A stretch of 64,000 nucleotides of DNA, taken from positions 1-64,000 of IMG/VR virus record IMGVR_UViG_3300038856_000064. One strand, 5' to 3'. The translations under genes were made by a program, and so were the position numbers. Below the pieces are notes generated by a model that was given only the letters and a program-made list of their open reading frames with translations, made no database searches and was not told the origin of the DNA. This DNA comes from a virus. Below are positions 1 to 8,659 of the stretch, piece by piece. Positions within the stretch are counted from its first letter, which is position 1. Each line of letters starts with the position of its first letter.

Positions 1-156
1 CTCTAGTATCATCTAGGTCTCGATGGTCTTATATGTCAAAATATAGCTTTAAAAGATGGATAGTTCAGCCTGTGCGAAACACTTCAATAACTCCGGCTTT
101 CACTCGCGACGTACAAGATACACCTAGATAAAATTTAGGGCATAAGTTCAATTTAT

Positions 157-289
157 GGGCCTGTAGTTTAATAGAGACTGGTCATCTATATCAAACTGAG
201 TATACGCAGAGTCAACTGCATCGGATGACTTAAAAGAACGCATAGTCGTAATCTGTGAAGTGGAGGTTCAAGTCCTTCCGGGTCCACCA
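157..289 (+). tRNA. tRNA-like gene with about 60-nt structured D-loop insertion; anticodon loop TCGTAAT (GTA with C33, or shifted CGT); G3.U70/A73; encoded CCA
   Basis: Acceptor GGGCCTG/CGGGTCC-A-CCA, D-stem GTTT/GAAC, anticodon stem CATAG/CTGTG, T-arm GGAGG-TTCAAGT-CCTTC. Confidence 0.85.
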
Positions 290-310
290 TTTTCTAGATG
301 AAAGAAACAT

Positions 311-437
311 GCCCCTGTAGCTTAAGATATCACGACGGGGTATCAAATCAATAAGGCAGAGTAAACTGCAAACCTTAGTGAGCAATAAAGCCCGAACTCA
401 TACTTCGGAGATTTAGGTTCAAGTCCTAACGGGGGCG
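311..437 (+). tRNA. tRNA-CAT (Met or Ile2) with about 55-nt structured D-loop insertion
   Basis: Acceptor GCCCCTG/CGGGGGC, D-stem GCTT/AAGC, CCGAA-CTCATAC-TTCGG, T-arm TTAGG-TTCAAGT-CCTAA. Confidence 0.85.
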
Positions 438-458
438 ATTTTTAAAAGGAACAACTAG

Positions 459-839
459 ATGACAGATAATGAAGGGATTAAATGTACAGGCGGACACACG
501 CTTCAATACCAAAACGGGCAGGAATTTACAATGGATATGACAGTCCTTCAAACTGCTTCTATGTCAGATGCTGACATTAAGCTTGAAGCGGGCATCCAGG
601 CGATTTCTGACCTACTAGGAGATGCAGAGGACGACACCGAGTGTGTCGAATGGGAGTGCTGTGGAGAATGCGTGGCAAATGCTGGCTTTTCTACAGCGCC
701 CAACTTCGAAAAGGGATTCTTTGATCTTCACCGAGAAGTTGTAGATGGCGTAGAGCAGGCTACGGTTCAGGTAATTCTGACTGCCGGCAATGATTTTGAT
801 ATTCTAGTTGTTTGTGATTGTGAGGAGGACGAATGCTAG
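459..839 (+). CDS. Acidic Cys-rich hypothetical protein (paralog of 9414..9833)
   Basis: SD AAGGA; shares EGxKCTG, MSDAD, ECCxEC and C-terminal CxC with 9414..9833. Confidence 0.8.
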   Translation: MTDNEGIKCTGGHTLQYQNGQEFTMDMTVLQTASMSDADIKLEAGIQAISDLLGDAEDDTECVEWECCGECVANAGFSTAPNFEKGFFDLHREVVDGVEQATVQVILTAGNDFDILVVCDCEEDEC

Positions 840-1018
840 ACGACACTACAGACCAGAGCGTGACCATTTTCTTTACAAGTGGTACACAGATTCAATTTAC
901 TGGCGTGAGTGATGTGAAGAAAACAACCGATCGTATCACCTTCAAGAAGGGTGGAAACGATTATACATTTATGGTTAATACTTTAGCAGGCTGGTCATTA
1001 CCGGCTGGTGTAAAATGA
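833..1018 (+). CDS. hypothetical protein
   Basis: ORF with GAGGA SD, overlaps neighbours. Confidence 0.7.
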   Translation: MLDDTTDQSVTIFFTSGTQIQFTGVSDVKKTTDRITFKKGGNDYTFMVNTLAGWSLPAGVK

Positions 1019-1245
1019 AAATGAAAACTGAATTTATGAATGGCAGGTTTATAGCTAATACGTCTAGCGATGATGGAGTTCAAAGGCTTCGTCTTGAGAT
1101 GTATCAATCTATCGATACGGCGTTATTTACCAGCGTCACGTATAATTGCGTATCATCAGATGACGTCGATAAAATGATTGACGAGCTAAAAGATGCTCGT
1201 AATCAGCTAGTTGTTTTTGAGGAAAAAGCAAAAAAAATCACTTGA
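1015..1245 (+). CDS. hypothetical protein
   Basis: ORF coupled to upstream stop. Confidence 0.7.
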   Translation: MKMKTEFMNGRFIANTSSDDGVQRLRLEMYQSIDTALFTSVTYNCVSSDDVDKMIDELKDARNQLVVFEEKAKKIT

Positions 1246-1269
1246 CAATCAGTCTAAGTAGGCTATACT
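1242..1269 (+). promoter_or_regulatory. sigma70-type promoter TTGACA-N16-TATACT
   Basis: Consensus hexamers with 16-nt spacer upstream of an ncRNA/tRNA cluster. Confidence 0.7.
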
Positions 1270-1282
1270 AGAGTGTTCGAAC

Positions 1283-1366
1283 GAGGCATGCTTCAAGCCT
1301 CTGGATGACACGTTAATGCTATGTCGCCTTGAGCAAGCGATATCTTAGTCATCTAGTTGCTGCTCA
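1283..1366 (+). ncRNA. candidate pseudoknotted ncRNA
   Basis: GAGGC/GCCTC hairpin; TGGATGAC/GTCATCTA stem enclosing ATGTCGC/GCGATAT; loop TGAGCA complementary to TGCTCA at 1361-1366. Confidence 0.5.
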
Positions 1367-1372
1367 TTTTAT

Positions 1373-1457
1373 CGCGGAATAGTGTAACTGGTAACACGCT
1401 TGGCTCATAACCAAGAAACCGAAAAGGCTTGTCCGGGTTCGAGTCCCGGTTCCGCTA
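1373..1457 (+). tRNA. tRNA-Met(CAT), initiator-like (unpaired 1:72), with long variable arm
   Basis: CGCGGAA/TTCCGCT, CTTGG-CTCATAA-CCAAG, CCGGG-TTCGAGT-CCCGG. Confidence 0.85.
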
Positions 1458-1469
1458 AACAATTCTTAT

Positions 1470-1543
1470 GTCGAGGTAGTGTAGCTAAAGGCACGCTGGC
1501 GTTGGAGCCAGTAGAGTAGGTGTGACGCCTACCCTCGACACCA
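1470..1543 (+). tRNA. atypical tRNA, 6- or 8-nt anticodon loop (TTG/TGG ambiguous), encoded CCA
   Basis: GTCGAGG/CCTCGAC-A-CCA, CTGGC-GTTGGA-GCCAG, GTAGG-TGTGACG-CCTAC. Confidence 0.7.
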
Positions 1544-1666
1544 GTCAATCCGAAAGCCAGGGTAGACGATTTCATTTTCCTTTTGTGTTTGAGATATGAA
1601 AAACTCTCATTTAGGCTTGACGATCCGGAGAGACGGGTACATTACCAGGGGCAATCACCTGGGTAT
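1544..1666 (+). ncRNA. candidate structured RNA abutting the tRNA CCA
   Basis: GTCA/TGAC, AGCC/GGCT, TTTCAT/ATGAAA nested stems followed by CCG-GAGAGA-CGG and CCAGG/CCTGG hairpins; no ORF. Confidence 0.4.
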
Positions 1667-1701
1667 AAAAACGTTGCATAATGATGCTTATAAAGTAAAA
1701 A

Positions 1702-1757
1702 GACTACTAGGTGTATCAAACTCCTTGACGCAGAGAGAACTGCAATCTGATGTAGTC
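1702..1757 (+). ncRNA. free-standing copy of the tRNA D-loop insert motif
   Basis: GACTAC/GTAGTC stem enclosing TATCAAA-N9-GCAGAGAGAACTGCA. Confidence 0.75.
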
Positions 1758-1824
1758 ATATAATGTATAATATTGATTTGTAATGGTAGTTGGTGGATCT
1801 ACTTGATTTAAAACCACCTTTTCA

Positions 1825-1901
1825 TGAGTGGAGCAGGGTTGTAATGATTAAGCGGTTCGAGTCCGTAGTAATTATCTAGGTTCGATTCCTAGGCCACTCA
1901 T
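1825..1901 (+). ncRNA. tRNA-like RNA with two T-arms and no anticodon
   Basis: TGAGTGG/CCACTCA; GCGG-TTCGAGT-CCGT; CTAGG-TTCGATT-CCTAG. Confidence 0.7.
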
Positions 1902-1955
1902 TAGTGTATGATATCAGATCATCTATCAAGGAGTTAAAAACGAAGACGATTGTTA

Positions 1956-2028
1956 GGGCGTATAGCATCAAGGACGATGCAGTCGGGCTTCAACCCGAAA
2001 GAGGTGGGTTCGATTCCTACTATGCCCG
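1956..2028 (+). tRNA. atypical tRNA with 6-nt loop CTTCAA (TCA or TTC)
   Basis: GGGCGTA/TATGCCC-G, GCATC/GATGC, TCGGG/CCCGA, GTGGG-TTCGATT-CCTAC. Confidence 0.75.
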
Positions 2029-2044
2029 ATGGAGACAATAGATA

Positions 2045-2269
2045 ATGAAAACAGTATTAGGATTCGGTCTTCATGATATAGAATATACCTATAAATATTG
2101 GGATATTCTAAATGCTGGTGGCGAAACGGAAAGATCACCAAGTAGAATGTGGGAAGCTAAGTATGATTGGCATATCGGTTATGGAGAAACCCAGATCGAA
2201 GCACTAGAACAGTTAATAAGATCTCTGGTCAATTACATAACATTACAAAAGATATTCCCTGGATCATGA
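2045..2269 (+). CDS. hypothetical protein
   Basis: ORF with GGAG upstream. Confidence 0.6.
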   Translation: MKTVLGFGLHDIEYTYKYWDILNAGGETERSPSRMWEAKYDWHIGYGETQIEALEQLIRSLVNYITLQKIFPGS

Positions 2270-2424
2270 AGCCTTACGGTGAGCGAAGACCTAGAGTGGT
2301 TTGGTGTGAAAATCATGGATGTCCATGTTGTGACAGCTATAAATGGCTTCGCAAAAAAGACCGCAAGCCATCTAAATCAAAAGAACGCCAAAGGGCAAAA
2401 CGTAATATCATGAAGTTTACCTGA
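2266..2424 (+). CDS. small very basic Cys-containing protein (MKPYG...CxxxGCPCC)
   Basis: ATGA overlap with upstream stop; K/R-rich tail. Confidence 0.65.
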   Translation: MKPYGERRPRVVWCENHGCPCCDSYKWLRKKDRKPSKSKERQRAKRNIMKFT

Positions 2425-2930: not shown

Positions 2931-3417
2931 AGAGCATAGCGCTGAAATTCTACCAATTAATCTAGCTGCCATTAATTTTAGGTGTGATGGCAACTTGGGG
3001 CAATTAATCAGAGCGGCGGTTTGTTTCGGTGTAGAGAATCTCTACGTAGTCGGGCATATTCCTACTAGACAAGAGCTAAAAAATATGTCTGGCTCAACAT
3101 TAGATTACATCAATATCATTCAGTGCGAGAATGAAGAAGACCTACTAGATAAGATTAGGGACACGACAGTTCTAGTTGCTGAATTAACTGATGACGCACA
3201 GAATGTTTACGACTTTGAGTTTGATTATTCCAAGCCAACAACTATTATTGTAGGTAATGAATCAGTTGGAGTGCCAGGAGTAATTACAACTAGAGCAGAT
3301 AATGTAGTGTATATTCCCATGCCGGGCTATGGTGTTTGCCTCAATACCGCCCACACGGCTAACATTATGCTGTATGAGGCGGCAAGACAATATTCTCGCA
3401 GTTGCCAGTCTGCATAG
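2893..3417 (+). CDS. SpoU/TrmH-family SPOUT RNA methyltransferase (start uncertain)
   Basis: GNLGQLIRAA, VGNESVG, YIPMPG..CLN motifs. Confidence 0.9.
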   Translation: MRLLTRKQRLRFKEHSAEILPINLAAINFRCDGNLGQLIRAAVCFGVENLYVVGHIPTRQELKNMSGSTLDYINIIQCENEEDLLDKIRDTTVLVAELTDDAQNVYDFEFDYSKPTTIIVGNESVGVPGVITTRADNVVYIPMPGYGVCLNTAHTANIMLYEAARQYSRSCQSA

Positions 3418-3424
3418 AAGATTC

Positions 3425-3493
3425 TTTTGAGTAGTGTAAAGGTCGCATACTATACAAAATATAGTGGTGTGAGTTCGAGTCTCATCTCAAAAA
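3425..3493 (+). tRNA. degenerate AU-rich tRNA-like element
   Basis: TTTTGAG/CTCAAAA, GTGT/GCAT, ACTAT/ATAGT, GTGAG-TTCGAGT-CTCAT. Confidence 0.6.
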
Positions 3494-3542: not shown

Positions 3543-4221
3543 ATGACTTCAGTAATAGTAGAGATTAGAGCCGCCGAAGGTGGCAAGGACGCTAAGCTTT
3601 TAGTTCAAGATCAACTAGGGATTTATCGCAAGGTTGCGCAGCGCTACTGTCTTTAGCATCGACGTCATAGAGGATCGGGCGGGGTTCGCTTGTTTCAGGG
3701 TGTCCGGTAAGGGTGCCGAGAGGACGTTCGCCAACGAGGGTGGAGGGCACCGAGTGCAGCGCGTGAGCCCTACAGAGAGGCGTGGAAGGGTCCATACGTC
3801 AACGATTACAGTGGCGGTGCTCCCTGAACCTAAACGACATGAGTTTAATCTAGATGTCCGAGATCTGGAAATTACAACTAGAAGAGGTAGCGGTCCCGGC
3901 GGACAGCATAGGAATAAAACAGACTCGTGCGTTGACATTAAACATAAACCAACCGGGATCGTAGTTTCTATAGATGGACGCTCACAGCATGCGAATAAGG
4001 CGTTAGCCTTGGAGATTCTTTCTGCAAAATTGCTTGCAAAACAGCGTGAGCGTGGTATAGTTGAGCGTAACCAGAACCGAAAAACCCAAGTAGGTTGTGG
4101 TCAGCGTGGTGACAAGCGACGCACTATTAGAATTCAGGATAATCAAGTGGTGGACCATATTCTTGGTAAGACCACAACCTATAAGGAGTATGTCAAAGGA
4201 AACTTCGATAAATTAATCTGA
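3543..4221 (+). CDS. Class I peptide chain release factor, RF1-like, lacking domain 1; needs +1 frameshift at CTT-TAG-C (3651-3657); about 225 aa
   Basis: SD AGGAGG, ATG 3543, EIRAAEGG..A (RF domain 2 start) for 37 codons then TAG; +1 frame carries HRVQRVSPTE..GRVHTS, GPGGQHRNKT and RRTI. Confidence 0.9.
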
Positions 4222-4868
4222 TGTGGCCTTTTAAAAAGAAGCAAGTCCCCTGGTTTCCGGCTATCGGAGATTTTGAGATAGATGAATCGGAGGACTATCT
4301 CGACCCGCATCATAAATCAATAATCAATCAACTCAAAAGTATAGTTCCCCCGGATACCTTTAGGGATGGATATATATGTGGGGGTTTCGCGTCTGCCGCT
4401 ATTGGTATTACCAATTCATACAGTGATATTGATATTTTCATAACGAATAAGGCCACATATAGACGTGTTGCTAATATACTAAGAGGTCTCCCTGGAATAG
4501 CCTTTCTAAAGGAAATCAAAAATGACAGAACCAAAATTAGACGCAACACACTCTCTATAGACGTAATAGATTATAGCGATAAGATTGATCCCTGGCGTTT
4601 GTTATGCAAACCAATACAGATACTAGAAAACTTTGACCTTAATTGGTCTATGGCTTGTATAGATGTCGGAAAACACAAAATCATTTACAATATAGACGCC
4701 TCGTCACCTATGGCTATGGTGAACGAAAATCATGATACAAATTTTTCTCACCAAATAGCAAATAGAATTACCAAGTATCAAGAAAGGTTATGTGCTGAGC
4801 CAGCGAGGGCTTGGAATAATCAACTCATTAAAGCGTTAGTCGAACAAAAGCCTAAGCCGATTTACTAA
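4221..4868 (+). CDS. Pol-beta superfamily nucleotidyltransferase (paralog 1)
   Basis: ICGGF..DIDIF, FDLNWS, RITKY. Confidence 0.75.
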   Translation: MWPFKKKQVPWFPAIGDFEIDESEDYLDPHHKSIINQLKSIVPPDTFRDGYICGGFASAAIGITNSYSDIDIFITNKATYRRVANILRGLPGIAFLKEIKNDRTKIRRNTLSIDVIDYSDKIDPWRLLCKPIQILENFDLNWSMACIDVGKHKIIYNIDASSPMAMVNENHDTNFSHQIANRITKYQERLCAEPARAWNNQLIKALVEQKPKPIY

Positions 4869-4898: not shown

Positions 4899-5602
4899 GG
4901 CCATTTAAAGAAAAACCCACCTGTTGGTGGCCAGACTCTGGAGATTTTATCGTAGATGATCTAGGTGATTATATCGATCTACATCAAGAAACAGTAATTC
5001 ACCAGATCAAAAGTATCATGCCTCTACATTTTTTTAATCAGGCATTTATATGTGGGGGATTTGCAGCTAATGTGGTTGGTATTACAAATTCATATGATGA
5101 TGTTGATATTTTTGTAACAGACAGGACAGAGTTTATGCTTACTGTAGATTATTTACAAAGACATCATGATATATGTGTAATGTATCACACTAATTCTAAA
5201 GATGATTATGGAGAAAGATTTAAATTTATATACAAAACCTCAGTCATAGATCTCGTAGACTATAGTAAAGTGATTGATAAACGTCGTCAAGCAGAAATCC
5301 GTTTAGGAAAATTTGATTCAGTATATATTAAGATACTAAAAACTTTTGATATTAACTGGTCTATGGCTTGTATCGATGTAGGTGCCAATGTGGAACAGTG
5401 GCACAAGGTAATCTATCATGAAGACGCCCTATCTCCCACAGTTGCGATGAACGAAGGGCGTCGAATAACTAACAACTACCACATAGCAGAAAGAATTAAT
5501 AAGTATCAATCAAGACTTAGTTTTGCTCCAAACCTTAAATGGAATGATGCGATAGCTAAAAAGCTTATGAGTGACGAGAAAGGATCTCCGTCAATTTACT
5601 AA
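4895..5602 (+). CDS. Pol-beta superfamily nucleotidyltransferase (paralog 2)
   Basis: ICGGF..DVDIF, FDINWS, RINKY; same MWPFK start as paralog 1. Confidence 0.75.
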   Translation: MWPFKEKPTCWWPDSGDFIVDDLGDYIDLHQETVIHQIKSIMPLHFFNQAFICGGFAANVVGITNSYDDVDIFVTDRTEFMLTVDYLQRHHDICVMYHTNSKDDYGERFKFIYKTSVIDLVDYSKVIDKRRQAEIRLGKFDSVYIKILKTFDINWSMACIDVGANVEQWHKVIYHEDALSPTVAMNEGRRITNNYHIAERINKYQSRLSFAPNLKWNDAIAKKLMSDEKGSPSIY

Positions 5603-5603
5603 A

Positions 5604-6749
5604 ATGCAACTAGATAGCGAATTATTTAATGTAGTTGAGAAGGATGGCATGAGGTTGATTCTCCCATGTCATTCTAATGCCGTCTCTAATACGGGGTGGA
5701 CTAGGAAAAATCTATGGCTAAGATCTAGGGTCGAGTGCGCCAAAACTGGAGATACAATCTCTGAGAGCTTTGGAAAATTCTTTAACCTCGGCCAGGGTCC
5801 TGATGAGCTACAGATCAATATAGAAACAGTTCTAGATGCAATTAGAAATAACAGGAGAATTGTCGCAACCCTTAAGTATGATGGAAGCTGCCTGATTAGG
5901 TCGGTTTATAAGGGGGAGGTATTTCTTCGCACTCGTGGGTCATTGAAGTATACGTTTCACGACGATGCGGAAGATGAGATGAGGATCTTTACTGATAAGT
6001 ATCCACGTCTATTTGATCCTACCTGGGAGCCGGCTAAATCTCTGTTGTTTGAGTGGGTTACGCCAGCAGCACAAATTGTTATTTCCTATTCCGAGCCTGA
6101 CCTAGTCCTTCTAGGTGCAGTGGATCACGGTCATCGTCATTACTCTCATTTGAAATATTTGACAATGGAGCAACTAGAGCCAATTGCCGCCGAGTGTGGC
6201 GTAAGGCTAACGGAATACTTCACGATTGATTCAGTTAAGGATTGGTATGATTTTTATCATGAGGTTTTAGACCATAAAGAGATTGAGGGATACGTCCTTC
6301 GGCTTAACGACGAGCAGGATCTGGTTAAGGTTAAGAGCCAGCCATACATTACCAAGCATGGTGTGAAGAGTAATCTTTCGTTTAAGTCGATGGTGGAATT
6401 TTGGTTGCAACATGGTCAAGAGGCTATTTATACTTCGATTTTAGAACAACTAGAAAAGTTATATGACGAAGAAGTTGTCATGTGGGCATTGCCCTTTGTA
6501 GACAATCTCTTTGTCGCAGTCGAAGCGTGGGAGAAGGCTCGCACTAAAGTTGAGCTAGATGTCTCTACTCGTTCTCACTGGTCTCGTAAAGACTTTGCTA
6601 TCGAAATGAAAAAGAAGTATACCGGCGAAGAAGCAATTCTGTTTAGTGTCGCTATGCAACTTTGGCAAGGTAAGCCTATCGCAGACAAGATGATTCGTAG
6701 CTTTATGGAGCGGTTTGATAATGGTATTAAGGGAATGTTCAATGAATAA
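5604..6749 (+). CDS. RNA ligase, T4 Rnl1-like
   Basis: KFFN, KYDGS (motif I), FEW, EGYVL, KVKS; likely ATG at 5604. Confidence 0.85.
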   Translation: MQLDSELFNVVEKDGMRLILPCHSNAVSNTGWTRKNLWLRSRVECAKTGDTISESFGKFFNLGQGPDELQINIETVLDAIRNNRRIVATLKYDGSCLIRSVYKGEVFLRTRGSLKYTFHDDAEDEMRIFTDKYPRLFDPTWEPAKSLLFEWVTPAAQIVISYSEPDLVLLGAVDHGHRHYSHLKYLTMEQLEPIAAECGVRLTEYFTIDSVKDWYDFYHEVLDHKEIEGYVLRLNDEQDLVKVKSQPYITKHGVKSNLSFKSMVEFWLQHGQEAIYTSILEQLEKLYDEEVVMWALPFVDNLFVAVEAWEKARTKVELDVSTRSHWSRKDFAIEMKKKYTGEEAILFSVAMQLWQGKPIADKMIRSFMERFDNGIKGMFNE

Positions 6750-7089
6750 CGAACATCGAATCAAGCTCCTCCTTAAGCTTCGTGCCTTGCGAACCGTTTT
6801 ACTAGCCGCTATCAAAAGAATAGAAAATGCTACACAGGGGGTAAACCAGCGATGGCGCGAGAAAACTGTAGACAATCTTACTCAAACCTTGGGGGTTATT
6901 GAGCGTAATATTGATGCATTGCAACAACTACCAGATATTCTAGGTGAAAAAACAGTAGCCCCGTCTGGAACCAGAGAATATACTGAAATGCAAAGCATCG
7001 AGGAGTATCGTAAGTTTCAGGGGCTACCACCAATTACTCAGAACGACATCATCTCAGTTGACTGGAAAGATCTACTAGGTAAATTATGA
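6742..7089 (+). CDS. hypothetical protein
   Basis: ORF overlapping ligase stop. Confidence 0.7.
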   Translation: MNNEHRIKLLLKLRALRTVLLAAIKRIENATQGVNQRWREKTVDNLTQTLGVIERNIDALQQLPDILGEKTVAPSGTREYTEMQSIEEYRKFQGLPPITQNDIISVDWKDLLGKL

Positions 7090-7325
7090 AAACTAAAGAT
7101 AAGCAAACTCTGCGGCGTCGTATTGAAGAAGTCTGTGCCATCCAAGGCGGATGGATGAACGGCGATGGCGAAAAGATTTGGAGTGACCCCGATCAAGTCG
7201 AAATGGTCGCTGTGACTTTATCAAACAAGCTAGGAGTATCTCCCGGAGTATTTCCGGACAACAATGGATATGTATCTCTTCAGTGGTTTCTAGGTGATGA
7301 TAATTTACTAGAGGTTCTGGTATGA
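7086..7325 (+). CDS. hypothetical protein
   Basis: coupled ORF. Confidence 0.65.
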   Translation: MKTKDKQTLRRRIEEVCAIQGGWMNGDGEKIWSDPDQVEMVAVTLSNKLGVSPGVFPDNNGYVSLQWFLGDDNLLEVLV

Positions 7326-7549
7326 ATCCTTTTTTAAAGTTTTTAACCGTAGTGTTTGGTATACTATCGTTCATACATATCGCCTATGCATTTACAATAT
7401 GCATATATACACTTAATATGCTATCAAGTAGTCATCCTGACACTATTCAAATTAACGAATGGGTGTCCTGGACAGCCCTGCCGGCATTCCTGATGGGGGG
7501 CTTCTTCGGCATGTGTACTGCTGAATTAAGTGATGCAAATTGCAATTAG
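7322..7549 (+). CDS. small two-TM membrane protein
   Basis: two hydrophobic segments. Confidence 0.6.
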   Translation: MNPFLKFLTVVFGILSFIHIAYAFTICIYTLNMLSSSHPDTIQINEWVSWTALPAFLMGGFFGMCTAELSDANCN

Positions 7550-7818: not shown

Positions 7819-8099
7819 TGAATAATTTTAAACACGATTGTATAGAGGCTGTATTGGAGGGTGACTCAATAGTTATACGTATCTCAAGCAAGTATTTGAC
7901 TAATATCGCGATGCCTGCGTCGTTCGAAGGTATTACTGGCTACGAAGATGCTGTAATTATCGACAAGAAACAATTAATCAAAGATGTTCTAGTTGAACTT
8001 AACCGCGAGGCTGAAGATGGAACGACTATGATTCATCTTATGCTAGATGAAGCTATCACAGACGCATATGACAATGGGTCGGAGGCATTTGAGGGATGA
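7818..8099 (+). CDS. hypothetical protein
   Basis: TAATG-coupled ORF. Confidence 0.7.
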   Translation: MNNFKHDCIEAVLEGDSIVIRISSKYLTNIAMPASFEGITGYEDAVIIDKKQLIKDVLVELNREAEDGTTMIHLMLDEAITDAYDNGSEAFEG

Positions 8100-8659
8100 A
8101 TATCTGGGTGACGTCTGACTCGCACTTTTCCCATCGTAACATTTTACAATATTGCAATCGCCCCTGGTCATCCGTCGAGGAAATGAATCAGGGATTGATT
8201 GATAGATGGAACGAAAGAGTTGGCAAGAATGATGTCGTATATCATCTAGGTGATTTTTGCCTTACTACTAAAATAGACCTAATTGATGAATGGTTATCTC
8301 AGCTAAATGGTACGATTCGGCTAGTAAAAGGTAATCACGACGTCTGGATAAAAAAGCTAGATAGGTTAGAATACGGACACAAGATTGAATGGATCAGAGA
8401 TTACTCTAAACAAACCGTAATGATTGATGATCAAAAACATCAAGTGGTTATGTTTCATTTTCCAATAATGTTCTGGGAGAATAGTCATCATGGGAGTGTT
8501 CATCTGCATGGACATTGTCATGGAAATGCTCAAAATCATAATAAGAATCTACGTCGATTTGATGTTGGCGTAGATTGTAATGACTGGTATCCGGTATTGC
8601 TAGATGACGTCGTCAGACAACTAGTAAATAAAGACACTAATCCGCACCATAACGACTAG
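8096..8659 (+). CDS. calcineurin-like metallophosphoesterase
   Basis: SDSH, HLGD, GNHD, HGHCH, DVGVD. Confidence 0.92.
   Translation: MNIWVTSDSHFSHRNILQYCNRPWSSVEEMNQGLIDRWNERVGKNDVVYHLGDFCLTTKIDLIDEWLSQLNGTIRLVKGNHDVWIKKLDRLEYGHKIEWIRDYSKQTVMIDDQKHQVVMFHFPIMFWENSHHGSVHLHGHCHGNAQNHNKNLRRFDVGVDCNDWYPVLLDDVVRQLVNKDTNPHHND

Follow-up and report, generated by a model that had tools for sequence, protein, structure and literature searches.

Archaeal tRNA genes include non-canonical introns with a bulge-helix-bulge (BHB) motif, some of them at D-loop positions (PMC4090602), and group I introns occur in the tRNA genes of bacteria and phages (PMC3984707). Another set of RNAs, namely RNA C/RNA D of the T4 tRNA cluster, transfer-messenger RNA (tmRNA) and the YrlA Y RNAs of bacteria and phages (Rfam: RF02553), joins a tRNA-shaped body with acceptor and T arm, and often an encoded CCA, to a domain that is not part of a tRNA. 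Here we describe an RNA domain, called the module in the following, in a 64,000-nucleotide (nt) stretch of viral DNA (the window; positions 1 to 64,000 of the IMG/VR record IMGVR_UViG_3300038856_000064), where two copies lie in the D-loops of tRNA-shaped genes and a third is free-standing. We know of no precedent for a folded domain in the D-loop of bacterial or phage tRNAs. The hepatitis delta virus (HDV)-like theta ribozymes of gut phages are reportedly found in polycistronic tRNA arrays, 3' of suppressor tRNAs and not inside them.

Like the archaeal BHB introns, the module is a short, helix-closed insertion in a tRNA loop other than the canonical 37/38 site. Unlike them, it occurs in a bacterial context, without the splicing endonuclease EndA and without the 3-4-3 geometry, it has a conserved core of its own and it is also found outside tRNAs. 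A strong match to a sigma-70-type promoter was found on the contig, which also encodes a release factor of bacterial type. With the group I introns the module shares its place as an intervening sequence in a bacterial-type tRNA gene, but it is several-fold smaller and sits in the D-loop rather than the anticodon loop. What it has in common with T4 RNA C/RNA D, tmRNA and YrlA is the tRNA-shaped body, encoded among phage tRNA genes and presumably serving processing and stability. In contrast to these RNAs, the module is a defined 50-nt pseudoknot, is placed in the D-loop and also stands alone, and there is no sequence match; the YrlA model scored 16.9 bits on one relative, against a gathering score of 69.

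The window has three matches, and no more, to the pattern TATCAAA-N(6-14)-GCAGAGnnAACTGCA, namely 189-220, 341-370 and 1714-1744 on the plus strand; 100 dinucleotide shuffles of the window gave none. These are the same three copies, the third outside any tRNA, that an earlier note had read from the letters of the sequence. No further copy was found in the whole 175,148-bp linear viral contig, of which the window is the first 64 kb and which is estimated to be 82% complete, with either a relaxed regular expression or a covariance model. The coordinates of the copies and of their parts are collected in Table 1.

The phage appears to be far from cultured phages. A DNA search with window positions 1-2400 gave no match among GenBank phages, and its Rnl1 protein is at most 27% identical to any cultured-phage homologue. 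Relatives in IMG/VR, sought via the small open reading frame (ORF) 459-839 and the SpoU gene, were not found. A large protein collection contained 85 Rnl1 homologues on metagenome contigs, the closer ones 60-78% identical. Twelve contigs with Rnl1 homologues were retrieved for the module search, and scanning metagenome contigs for the commonest form of the motif gave about 20 further true loci beside recognisable chance matches. This resulted in about 35 distinct module copies from related metagenomic phage contigs or loci, designated by L-numbers (L005, L034, L067 etc.), with TARA ocean and saline-lake metagenomes among the source samples. At the loci oriented by Rnl1, all accepted copies have the same orientation as the tRNA genes. 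The module family is found in one clade of uncultured large marine/saline phages, and it is apparently transcribed together with the tRNA arrays of that clade.

No catalogue that we searched contains the module. In Rfam, nothing except tRNA was found in the window region at E-values up to 10, nor at gathering thresholds in 140 kb of relatives. Two pattern scans of IMG/VR gave no true copy outside the own contig, the matches being chance hits inside coding sequences, and a scan for the commonest module form in 185,579 prokaryote species, each represented by one genome, gave 15 matches, all due to chance. We found neither a paper describing the module nor a catalogued family. The earlier note had proposed an unrecognised portable structured RNA domain, whose novelty a covariance model built from the copies and compared with Rfam could disprove; the novelty stands, and the domain recurs in the relatives in the same as well as in new contexts. 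A folded domain of about 50-60 nt, the module represents a real and new RNA family.

All copies share the same order of elements: a closing helix (P1), 1-4 bases, a single-stranded YCAAA box, a linker of 8-17 bases, a hairpin (P2), an A and the return strand of P1. The C of the box is nearly invariant among the captured copies and its three A are invariant, the exceptions being L034 4488, L067 4158 and L069. P2 is a 4-bp hairpin GCAG/CUGC, rarely GCGG/CCGC or GUAG/CUAC, with a hexaloop AGNNAA in most copies and a loop of 7-8 nt in six. Altogether about 15 bases are near-invariant, concentrated in one junction and one helix. P1, in turn, ranges from 3 to 11 bp across the family, with irregular bulges and unrelated sequences. 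The three window copies have P1, the YCAAA box, a P2 of the form GCRG/CYGC and the 3' A; a clear pseudoknot between box-side strand and P2 loop, the remaining feature proposed for the family, is missing in copy 2.

That the outer stems differ in sequence and nevertheless pair had been taken as a sign of conserved structure in the earlier note. For the three window stems (180-187/223-230, 330-333/378-381 and 1702-1707/1752-1757) the pairing itself was confirmed, but a single stem of 4-6 bp does not exceed chance. In a cruder test, using the longest stem within 10 nt on either side, cognate and swapped partners were not separated, so a lone 4-bp stem, for example 330-333/378-381, is no evidence by itself. 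We therefore used duplex energies in place of the stem-length control. Over 17 non-redundant copies with unrelated flanks, the cognate 16-nt flanks gave a mean of -8.5 kcal/mol, compared to -4.8 kcal/mol for swapped partners, and none of 5000 permutations reached the observed mean. Across the family the argument from differing stems thus holds. Orthologous copies in the same tRNA show P1 fully replaced with the pairing kept, for example CTGTC/GACAG to CTGTT/AACAG, and in other cases by quite different helices. G.U pairs make up 37 of the 270 P1 pairs (14%), which speaks for P1 pairing as sense RNA and not as DNA.

A feature missing from the earlier note is a pseudoknot, based on complementarity between the P2 loop and the bases directly 3' of the box. 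With 25 distinct linker-loop pairs compared, linker and loop of the same copy matched better than cross pairs (p = 8e-5). The six copies with long loops have Watson-Crick runs of 3-5 bp (4-7 bp with G.U) in five different sequences, always beginning 0-2 bases after the box, and in a joint test one of 20,000 loop shuffles did as well. The pseudoknot of hexaloop copies has just 3 bp, as in 1721-1723 with 1735-1737. P2 is almost invariant and holds little information by itself; it has compensatory variants, GUAG/CUAC in L069 and GCGG/CCGC at three places in L088. The search for homologues with compensating stems, which the earlier note had asked for, was thus successful, with both P1 and the pseudoknot passing the partner-swap and shuffle controls. 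The fold is a compact H-type pseudoknot closed by a third helix, with an A-rich strand beside a sequence-conserved helix. By analogy with known pseudoknot structures, this strand may lie in the groove of P2.

A more distant relative is present in L088 (about 6825-7010 and 7270-7335), with diverged copies having a GCGG/CCGC P2 and pseudoknots of 4-5 bp. The covariance model R1 misses these copies, whose P2 differs. One of them lies in the D-loop of a tRNA-like RNA. Another arrangement is apparently split, with the hairpin about 75 nt upstream of the box and pseudoknot strand and a T-arm-like hairpin between them.

In the window, the carriers of the first two copies differ in how far they are tRNAs. 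The earlier note had called both of them tRNAs with D-loop inserts. For 311-437 this was confirmed, since the Rfam tRNA model (RF00005) recognises it with a D-loop insertion of 62 nt at 43.9 bits, above the gathering score of 29 bits, and after removing the insert in silico ARAGORN calls tRNA-Met(CAT). For 157-289 the stems were confirmed (acceptor 157-163/279-285, D 166-169/236-239, anticodon 241-245/253-257 and T 262-266/274-278) and direct reading gives G3.U70, A73 and an encoded CCA, but the identity as a tRNA was not: RF00005 (E-values up to 10) and ARAGORN reject it with or without the insert, and its anticodon-arm loop 246-252 is the non-canonical UCGUAAU with a C at position 33. The RNA 157-289 is tRNA-like and not a normal decoder.

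This RNA belongs to a set of orthologues with the same acceptor and D stem and the same module site, the GGGCCUG family, which is also present in L034, L044, L046 and L067. A second D-loop context is the CAU tRNA of window 311-437, found again in L006 and with a related body in L005, and a third CAU tRNA carries the module in L034 and L067. In a further tRNA body the module is placed in the anticodon loop (L044, L037, L067 and L068, and at a comparable position in L032); in L067, Rfam recognises 4429-4577 as a tRNA with an 87-nt anticodon-loop insert at 45 bits and 4283-4419 at 32 bits. Free-standing copies are found 3' of a tRNA-Met gene, as copy 3 of the window and in L005, L006, L007, L032, L034, L037, L046, L048, L066, L067 and L068, and additionally about 27 nt upstream of a tRNA-Gly. 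The copies within one genome have diverged, and their positions are orthologous across phages whose Rnl1 is 60-78% identical to that of the window, which suggests that the module is old and vertically kept. In L054 89-124, compared with L044 4688-4882, an apparent deletion has brought the 5' part of one copy next to the 3' flank of the following one. This leaves a weak closing helix (-2.3 kcal/mol), and the locus reflects either recombination between copies or an assembly chimera.

Alternatively, the repeat could act as DNA, being a selfish repeat or a protein operator, or it could mark decaying pseudo-tRNAs and have no RNA function. P2 is nearly palindromic and symmetric changes in its half-sites could mimic compensation, L054 has a deletion that joins two copies, and many of the neighbouring tRNA-like genes are aberrant. 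This reading is nevertheless highly improbable in our view. P1 and the pseudoknot are not palindromic and still pair after their sequences have wholly changed, the 14% of G.U pairs would be A.C on the other strand, all copies are on the tRNA strand, and diverged copies within each genome with orthologous positions between phages speak against it as well.

The inserts fall into two narrow size classes of 51-52 and 60-62 nt. When the insert is removed at the base of P1, ARAGORN calls five of ten carriers, and in the GGGCCUG family a canonical D-loop is left with its GG intact. The variable pocket of the tRNA D-loop tolerates extra bases; the domain would therefore project from this pocket. The anticodon-arm loops of the GGGCCUG family have 6-8 nt, are non-standard and differ from phage to phage, so the carrier body looks like a scaffold. 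We thus interpret these RNAs as probable scaffolds or special-purpose RNAs and not as ordinary decoders.

The size classes, the canonical D-loop left by removal at the P1 base and the five carriers called by ARAGORN would also be expected of an excised intron-like element, as the earlier note had suggested. In such a scheme, an endonuclease of phage or host would recognise the module and cut at the base of P1, the phage RNA ligases would rejoin the halves, and the kinase and phosphoesterase would heal the ends if needed. The strongest argument for such an excision are the CAU tRNAs, which have perfect 7-nt anticodon loops and carry a bulky domain near the elbow; in addition, the orthologous tRNA of L007 (4205-4273) has no insert. 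We consider it unlikely, as no sign of excision was found, the length of P1 is not fixed, and the free-standing and anticodon-loop copies cannot be the introns of a working tRNA. The two RNA ligases, the kinase and the two phosphoesterases that were cited in favour of splicing are indeed encoded nearby, but such repair genes are common in large phages without these inserts and are not evidence of splicing. A set of ligase, kinase and phosphoesterase is what phages usually carry for tRNA repair, as T4 does with Pnk and Rnl1. Equally unlikely is a broader version, in which the module would block the tRNA and could be removed or switched, making it a third kind of intervening sequence in tRNAs of the bacterial world. 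Phage enzymes, the RNA ligases among them, would excise it, or nick and reseal it, with the pseudoknot as recognition feature, and this would time the activity of special CAU and suppressor-like tRNAs during infection.

The known intron types do not match. An archaeal BHB intron was rejected, with no two 3-nt bulges around a 4-bp helix and a P1 that is continuous over 8 bp in copy 1; the earlier note had likewise seen no clear BHB. EndA (Pfam: PF01974) gave no match in the 175-kb contig with a search that was positive in four control archaea. Genes for RNase III and TROVE/Ro60 are also absent from the contig, so that neither a splicing endonuclease nor RNase III is available from it for excision. 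A group I intron was rejected on size, 51-62 nt compared to a P1-P9 catalytic core of about 200 nt or more, and has no Rfam Intron_gpI match.

A compact pseudoknot of about 50 nt, in which some 15 near-invariant bases cluster in a junction and a single helix, is what small ribozymes typically look like, and its location in polycistronic tRNA arrays is like that of the theta ribozymes. The module might thus be a small self-cleaving or processing ribozyme that cuts pre-tRNA transcripts at the spacers and nicks its carriers. This, too, is unlikely. No Rfam ribozyme family matches even at E-values up to 10, an HDV-type active site needs a conserved C 3' of P2 which the module lacks, the topologies of hammerhead, twister, pistol and hatchet do not fit by inspection, and cutting a tRNA D-loop has no evident use. 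The likeness to theta ribozymes is that of a small pseudoknotted RNA tied to the tRNAs of uncultured phages that also tamper with decoding; the difference is the lack of a nested double pseudoknot, of the conserved catalytic C and of an Rfam match. As a candidate identity, an HDV-like/theta ribozyme was rejected, the three positions after P2 being variable apart from the A, and the module helices could not be mapped by inspection onto the nested double pseudoknot of HDV (P1, P1.1, P2, P3, P4) with its catalytic C in J4/2. The cores of hammerhead, twister, pistol and hatchet were rejected as well.

The position of free-standing copies at the ends of operons, behind tRNA-Met and before tRNA-Gly, could point to a nuclease roadblock, an end-protecting knot that shields neighbouring RNA from exonucleases and functions like coremin. 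Coremin/xrRNA-C consists of two hairpins, the first having a YGAD or YGNNAD loop that a Y-R pair closes, separated by the conserved 10-nt spacer GUUAAACUAC (PMC6546385, PMC10520033), and both the AGNNAA hexaloop and the GUU..AAAC strand of the module recall its YGNNAD loop and GUUAAACUAC spacer (PMC6546385, PMC10520033). The two elements share two short helices, a G..A-type hexaloop, a conserved strand with GUU and AAAC, and a small knot. Unlike the coremin of beny- and cucumoviruses, the module has the reverse order of elements with the conserved strand 5' of the special hairpin, its first loop base is A and not Y, its loop pairs with the 5' strand, it has an extra closing helix, and its loop is closed by G-C, a pair that abolished Xrn1 resistance in the BNYVV coremin context. 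Coremin was therefore rejected as an identity, also in a circularly permuted form; the coremin core GAC-N3-AAAC occurs in the window at chance level only, and the likeness is a resemblance and not membership. A roadblock would make no sense inside a D-loop, and we think this explanation quite unlikely, slightly more so than a ribozyme.

An H-type pseudoknot with an A-rich strand beside a sequence-conserved helix is an arrangement shared by small riboswitch aptamers. A ligand-binding aptamer could switch the carrier tRNA between usable and unusable, in a phage with many recoding-type oddities such as the RF1-like gene and tRNAs with 6- or 8-nt anticodon loops. Rfam gave no riboswitch family, the free-standing copies have no expression platform, and genes related to a ligand were not found in the neighbourhood, which makes this very unlikely. 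Fits of preQ1-type and other small aptamers and of the sarcin-ricin loop were tried and rejected. The same applies to a type III antitoxin RNA (ToxI-like), as the copies are dispersed with a P1 each, unlike the tandem direct repeats of about 36 nt that ToxI has beside an endoribonuclease toxin gene, and there is no Rfam ToxI match; a 9-mer has a possible resemblance to ToxI.

Besides the module there is a second hairpin family in the clade, GCAG-UUGNNRGU-CUGC-A, with 24 distinct copies and GCUG/CAGC compensatory variants. Stem and 3' A of these companion hairpins are the same as those of P2. A tRNA or tRNA-like gene follows 4-20 nt downstream of them, and most free-standing module copies are themselves followed by such a hairpin at a distance of about 50 nt. 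Copies are found in L005 (2418), L006 (3431, 7528 and 7806), L007 (7911 and 8066), L032 (963, 6004 and 6121), L034 (5613, 7726 and 7866), L067 (5087, 8056 and 8192) and L068 (850). In the window, the probable companion hairpin 1786-1802 follows copy 3 after 30 nt and precedes the tRNA-like RNA 1825-1901. The middle loop bases of the companion hairpins vary like an anticodon.

The reading that we favour, tentatively and with somewhat less than even confidence, is that the module serves as a docking knob, retained on tRNA scaffolds, to which a trans-acting factor binds. It would stay in the mature RNA, and the factor would probably be the same as the one that reads the plain GCAG...CUGC-A hairpins upstream of many tRNAs. 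P2 and its A would be the signal, and the module would be this signal held in a rigid pseudoknot, on tRNA bodies or alone. We read P2 and its A in this way because of the four contexts, the vertical conservation, the concentration of conserved bases in one helix and the junction, and the 24 companion hairpins. The tRNA or tRNA-like body would supply folding, end-processing and stability, with the knob projecting from solvent-facing loops, either the variable pockets of the D-loop or the anticodon loop. Binding might lead to processing, modification, protection or sequestration.

Retention is favoured since the domain is also found free-standing and in the anticodon loop, where excision leaves no useful product, and since the GGGCCUG insert sits in a D-loop pocket tolerant of extra bases. 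A retained handle, the other option raised in the earlier note, would thus fit better than excision, although we infer it rather than demonstrate it.

Several points weigh against a retained docking knob. No candidate binding protein was found, and the 700-aa ORF that lies beside many free-standing copies is absent from the contig; a gene for the partner might be encoded in the part of the genome that the contig, at 82% completeness, does not cover. A tRNA that has a 50-nt domain at its elbow may not be usable on the ribosome. Moreover, 311-437 and several of its orthologues keep a perfect CAU anticodon loop, which is easier to understand if the insert is removed. Copy 2 has no convincing pseudoknot partner and reached only 2 bp in the pseudoknot test. 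Furthermore, the sequences in the statistical tests are related to each other, and the p-values therefore assume more independence than there is.

Among the neighbouring genes listed in Table 1, the metallophosphoesterase, AAA_33 kinase and RNA ligase at 19797-22631 form a cassette that looks like a split healing-and-sealing RNA repair system, besides the Rnl1 gene. The window also encodes a SpoU methylase and an RNase T-like exonuclease. Inside the tRNA region, a 143-aa ORF (2499-2930) matches the core of class II aminoacyl-tRNA synthetases weakly and below the threshold (Pfam: PF00587, E = 0.004).

Some of the other tRNA genes of the window are unusual. The tRNA at 1956-2028 is conserved, with 38 bits in Rfam and about 47-55 bits for its relatives (L005 5641-5717, L006 6157-6230, L007 5554-5629, L034 6456-6529 and L067 5939-6012). 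ARAGORN assigns it a two-base anticodon, 'tc', in the window and the four-base UUCA in the relatives. The gene is a candidate suppressor of the opal or quadruplet type, and the same phages have an RF1-like protein. The tRNA-Met at 1372-1458 (58.8 bits) has an extra stretch of 14 nt in the variable region, which is unusual for a Met tRNA. Two tRNA-like genes, 1470-1543 and 1825-1901, have intact acceptor and T arms and non-standard middles, one of them with a loop of 6 or 8 nt, the other with a second hairpin that resembles a T arm.

Table 1. Coordinates of the module copies, their carriers, the companion hairpins and neighbouring genes in the window.
Feature	Position	Strand	Evidence or remark
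Module copy 1	180..230	+	pattern match; model R1 32.6 bits
Copy 1, P1	180-187 with 223-230	+	continuous 8-bp helix; flank duplex -10.6 kcal/mol
Copy 1, box; P2; hexaloop; 3' A	189-196; 206-209 with 216-219; 210-215; A220	+	
Copy 1, candidate 3-bp pseudoknot	197-199 with 212-214	+	
Module copy 2	330..381	+	pattern match; model R1 35.7 bits
Copy 2, P1; inner helix	330-333 with 378-381; 337-340 with 373-376	+	
Copy 2, box; P2; hexaloop; 3' A	341-348; 356-359 with 366-369; 360-365; A370	+	
Module copy 3, free-standing	1702..1757	+	model R1 52.5 bits; constrained fold
Copy 3, outer P1; inner P1	1702-1707 with 1752-1757; 1708-1711 with 1746-1749	+	
Copy 3, box; pseudoknot	1714-1721; 1721-1723 with 1735-1737	+	
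Copy 3, P2; hexaloop; 3' A	1730-1733 with 1740-1743; 1734-1739; A1744	+	
tRNA-like RNA W1, module in D-loop	157..289	+	stems by direct reading
tRNA with anticodon CAU (399-401) in a normal 7-nt loop, module in D-loop	311..437	+	RF00005 43.9 bits; ARAGORN
Probable companion hairpin, GUAG/CUAC stem, UUGGUGGAU loop	1786..1802	+	direct reading; relatives have equivalents after the free-standing module
Companion leader hairpin GCAG-UUGCCAGU-CUGC-A	3398..3414	+	11 nt upstream of tRNA-like gene 3425-3493
RF1-like protein	3634-4221		
Rnl1-type RNA ligase	5571-6749		confirmed
Metallophosphoesterases	8096-8659 and 19797-20531		confirmed
AAA_33 kinase	20832-21296		confirmed
Second RNA ligase (PHA02142 OB fold and RNA_ligase domain)	21558-22631		confirmed

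If the domain is retained, natural tRNA bodies can carry a sizeable cargo at the elbow, which bears on tRNA recognition, on compatibility with the ribosome and on engineered tRNA scaffolds. Excision would instead make it a new type of tRNA intron, linked to phage RNA ligases and found outside archaea and eukaryotes. Either way, the module is a small RNA family with about 15 conserved bases and a clear fold, and its short length makes it directly accessible to biochemistry and structure determination. The phages that carry it have a release-factor-like protein and tRNAs with odd anticodon loops. The module may belong to a phage programme that rewires host translation or evades defences that target tRNAs.

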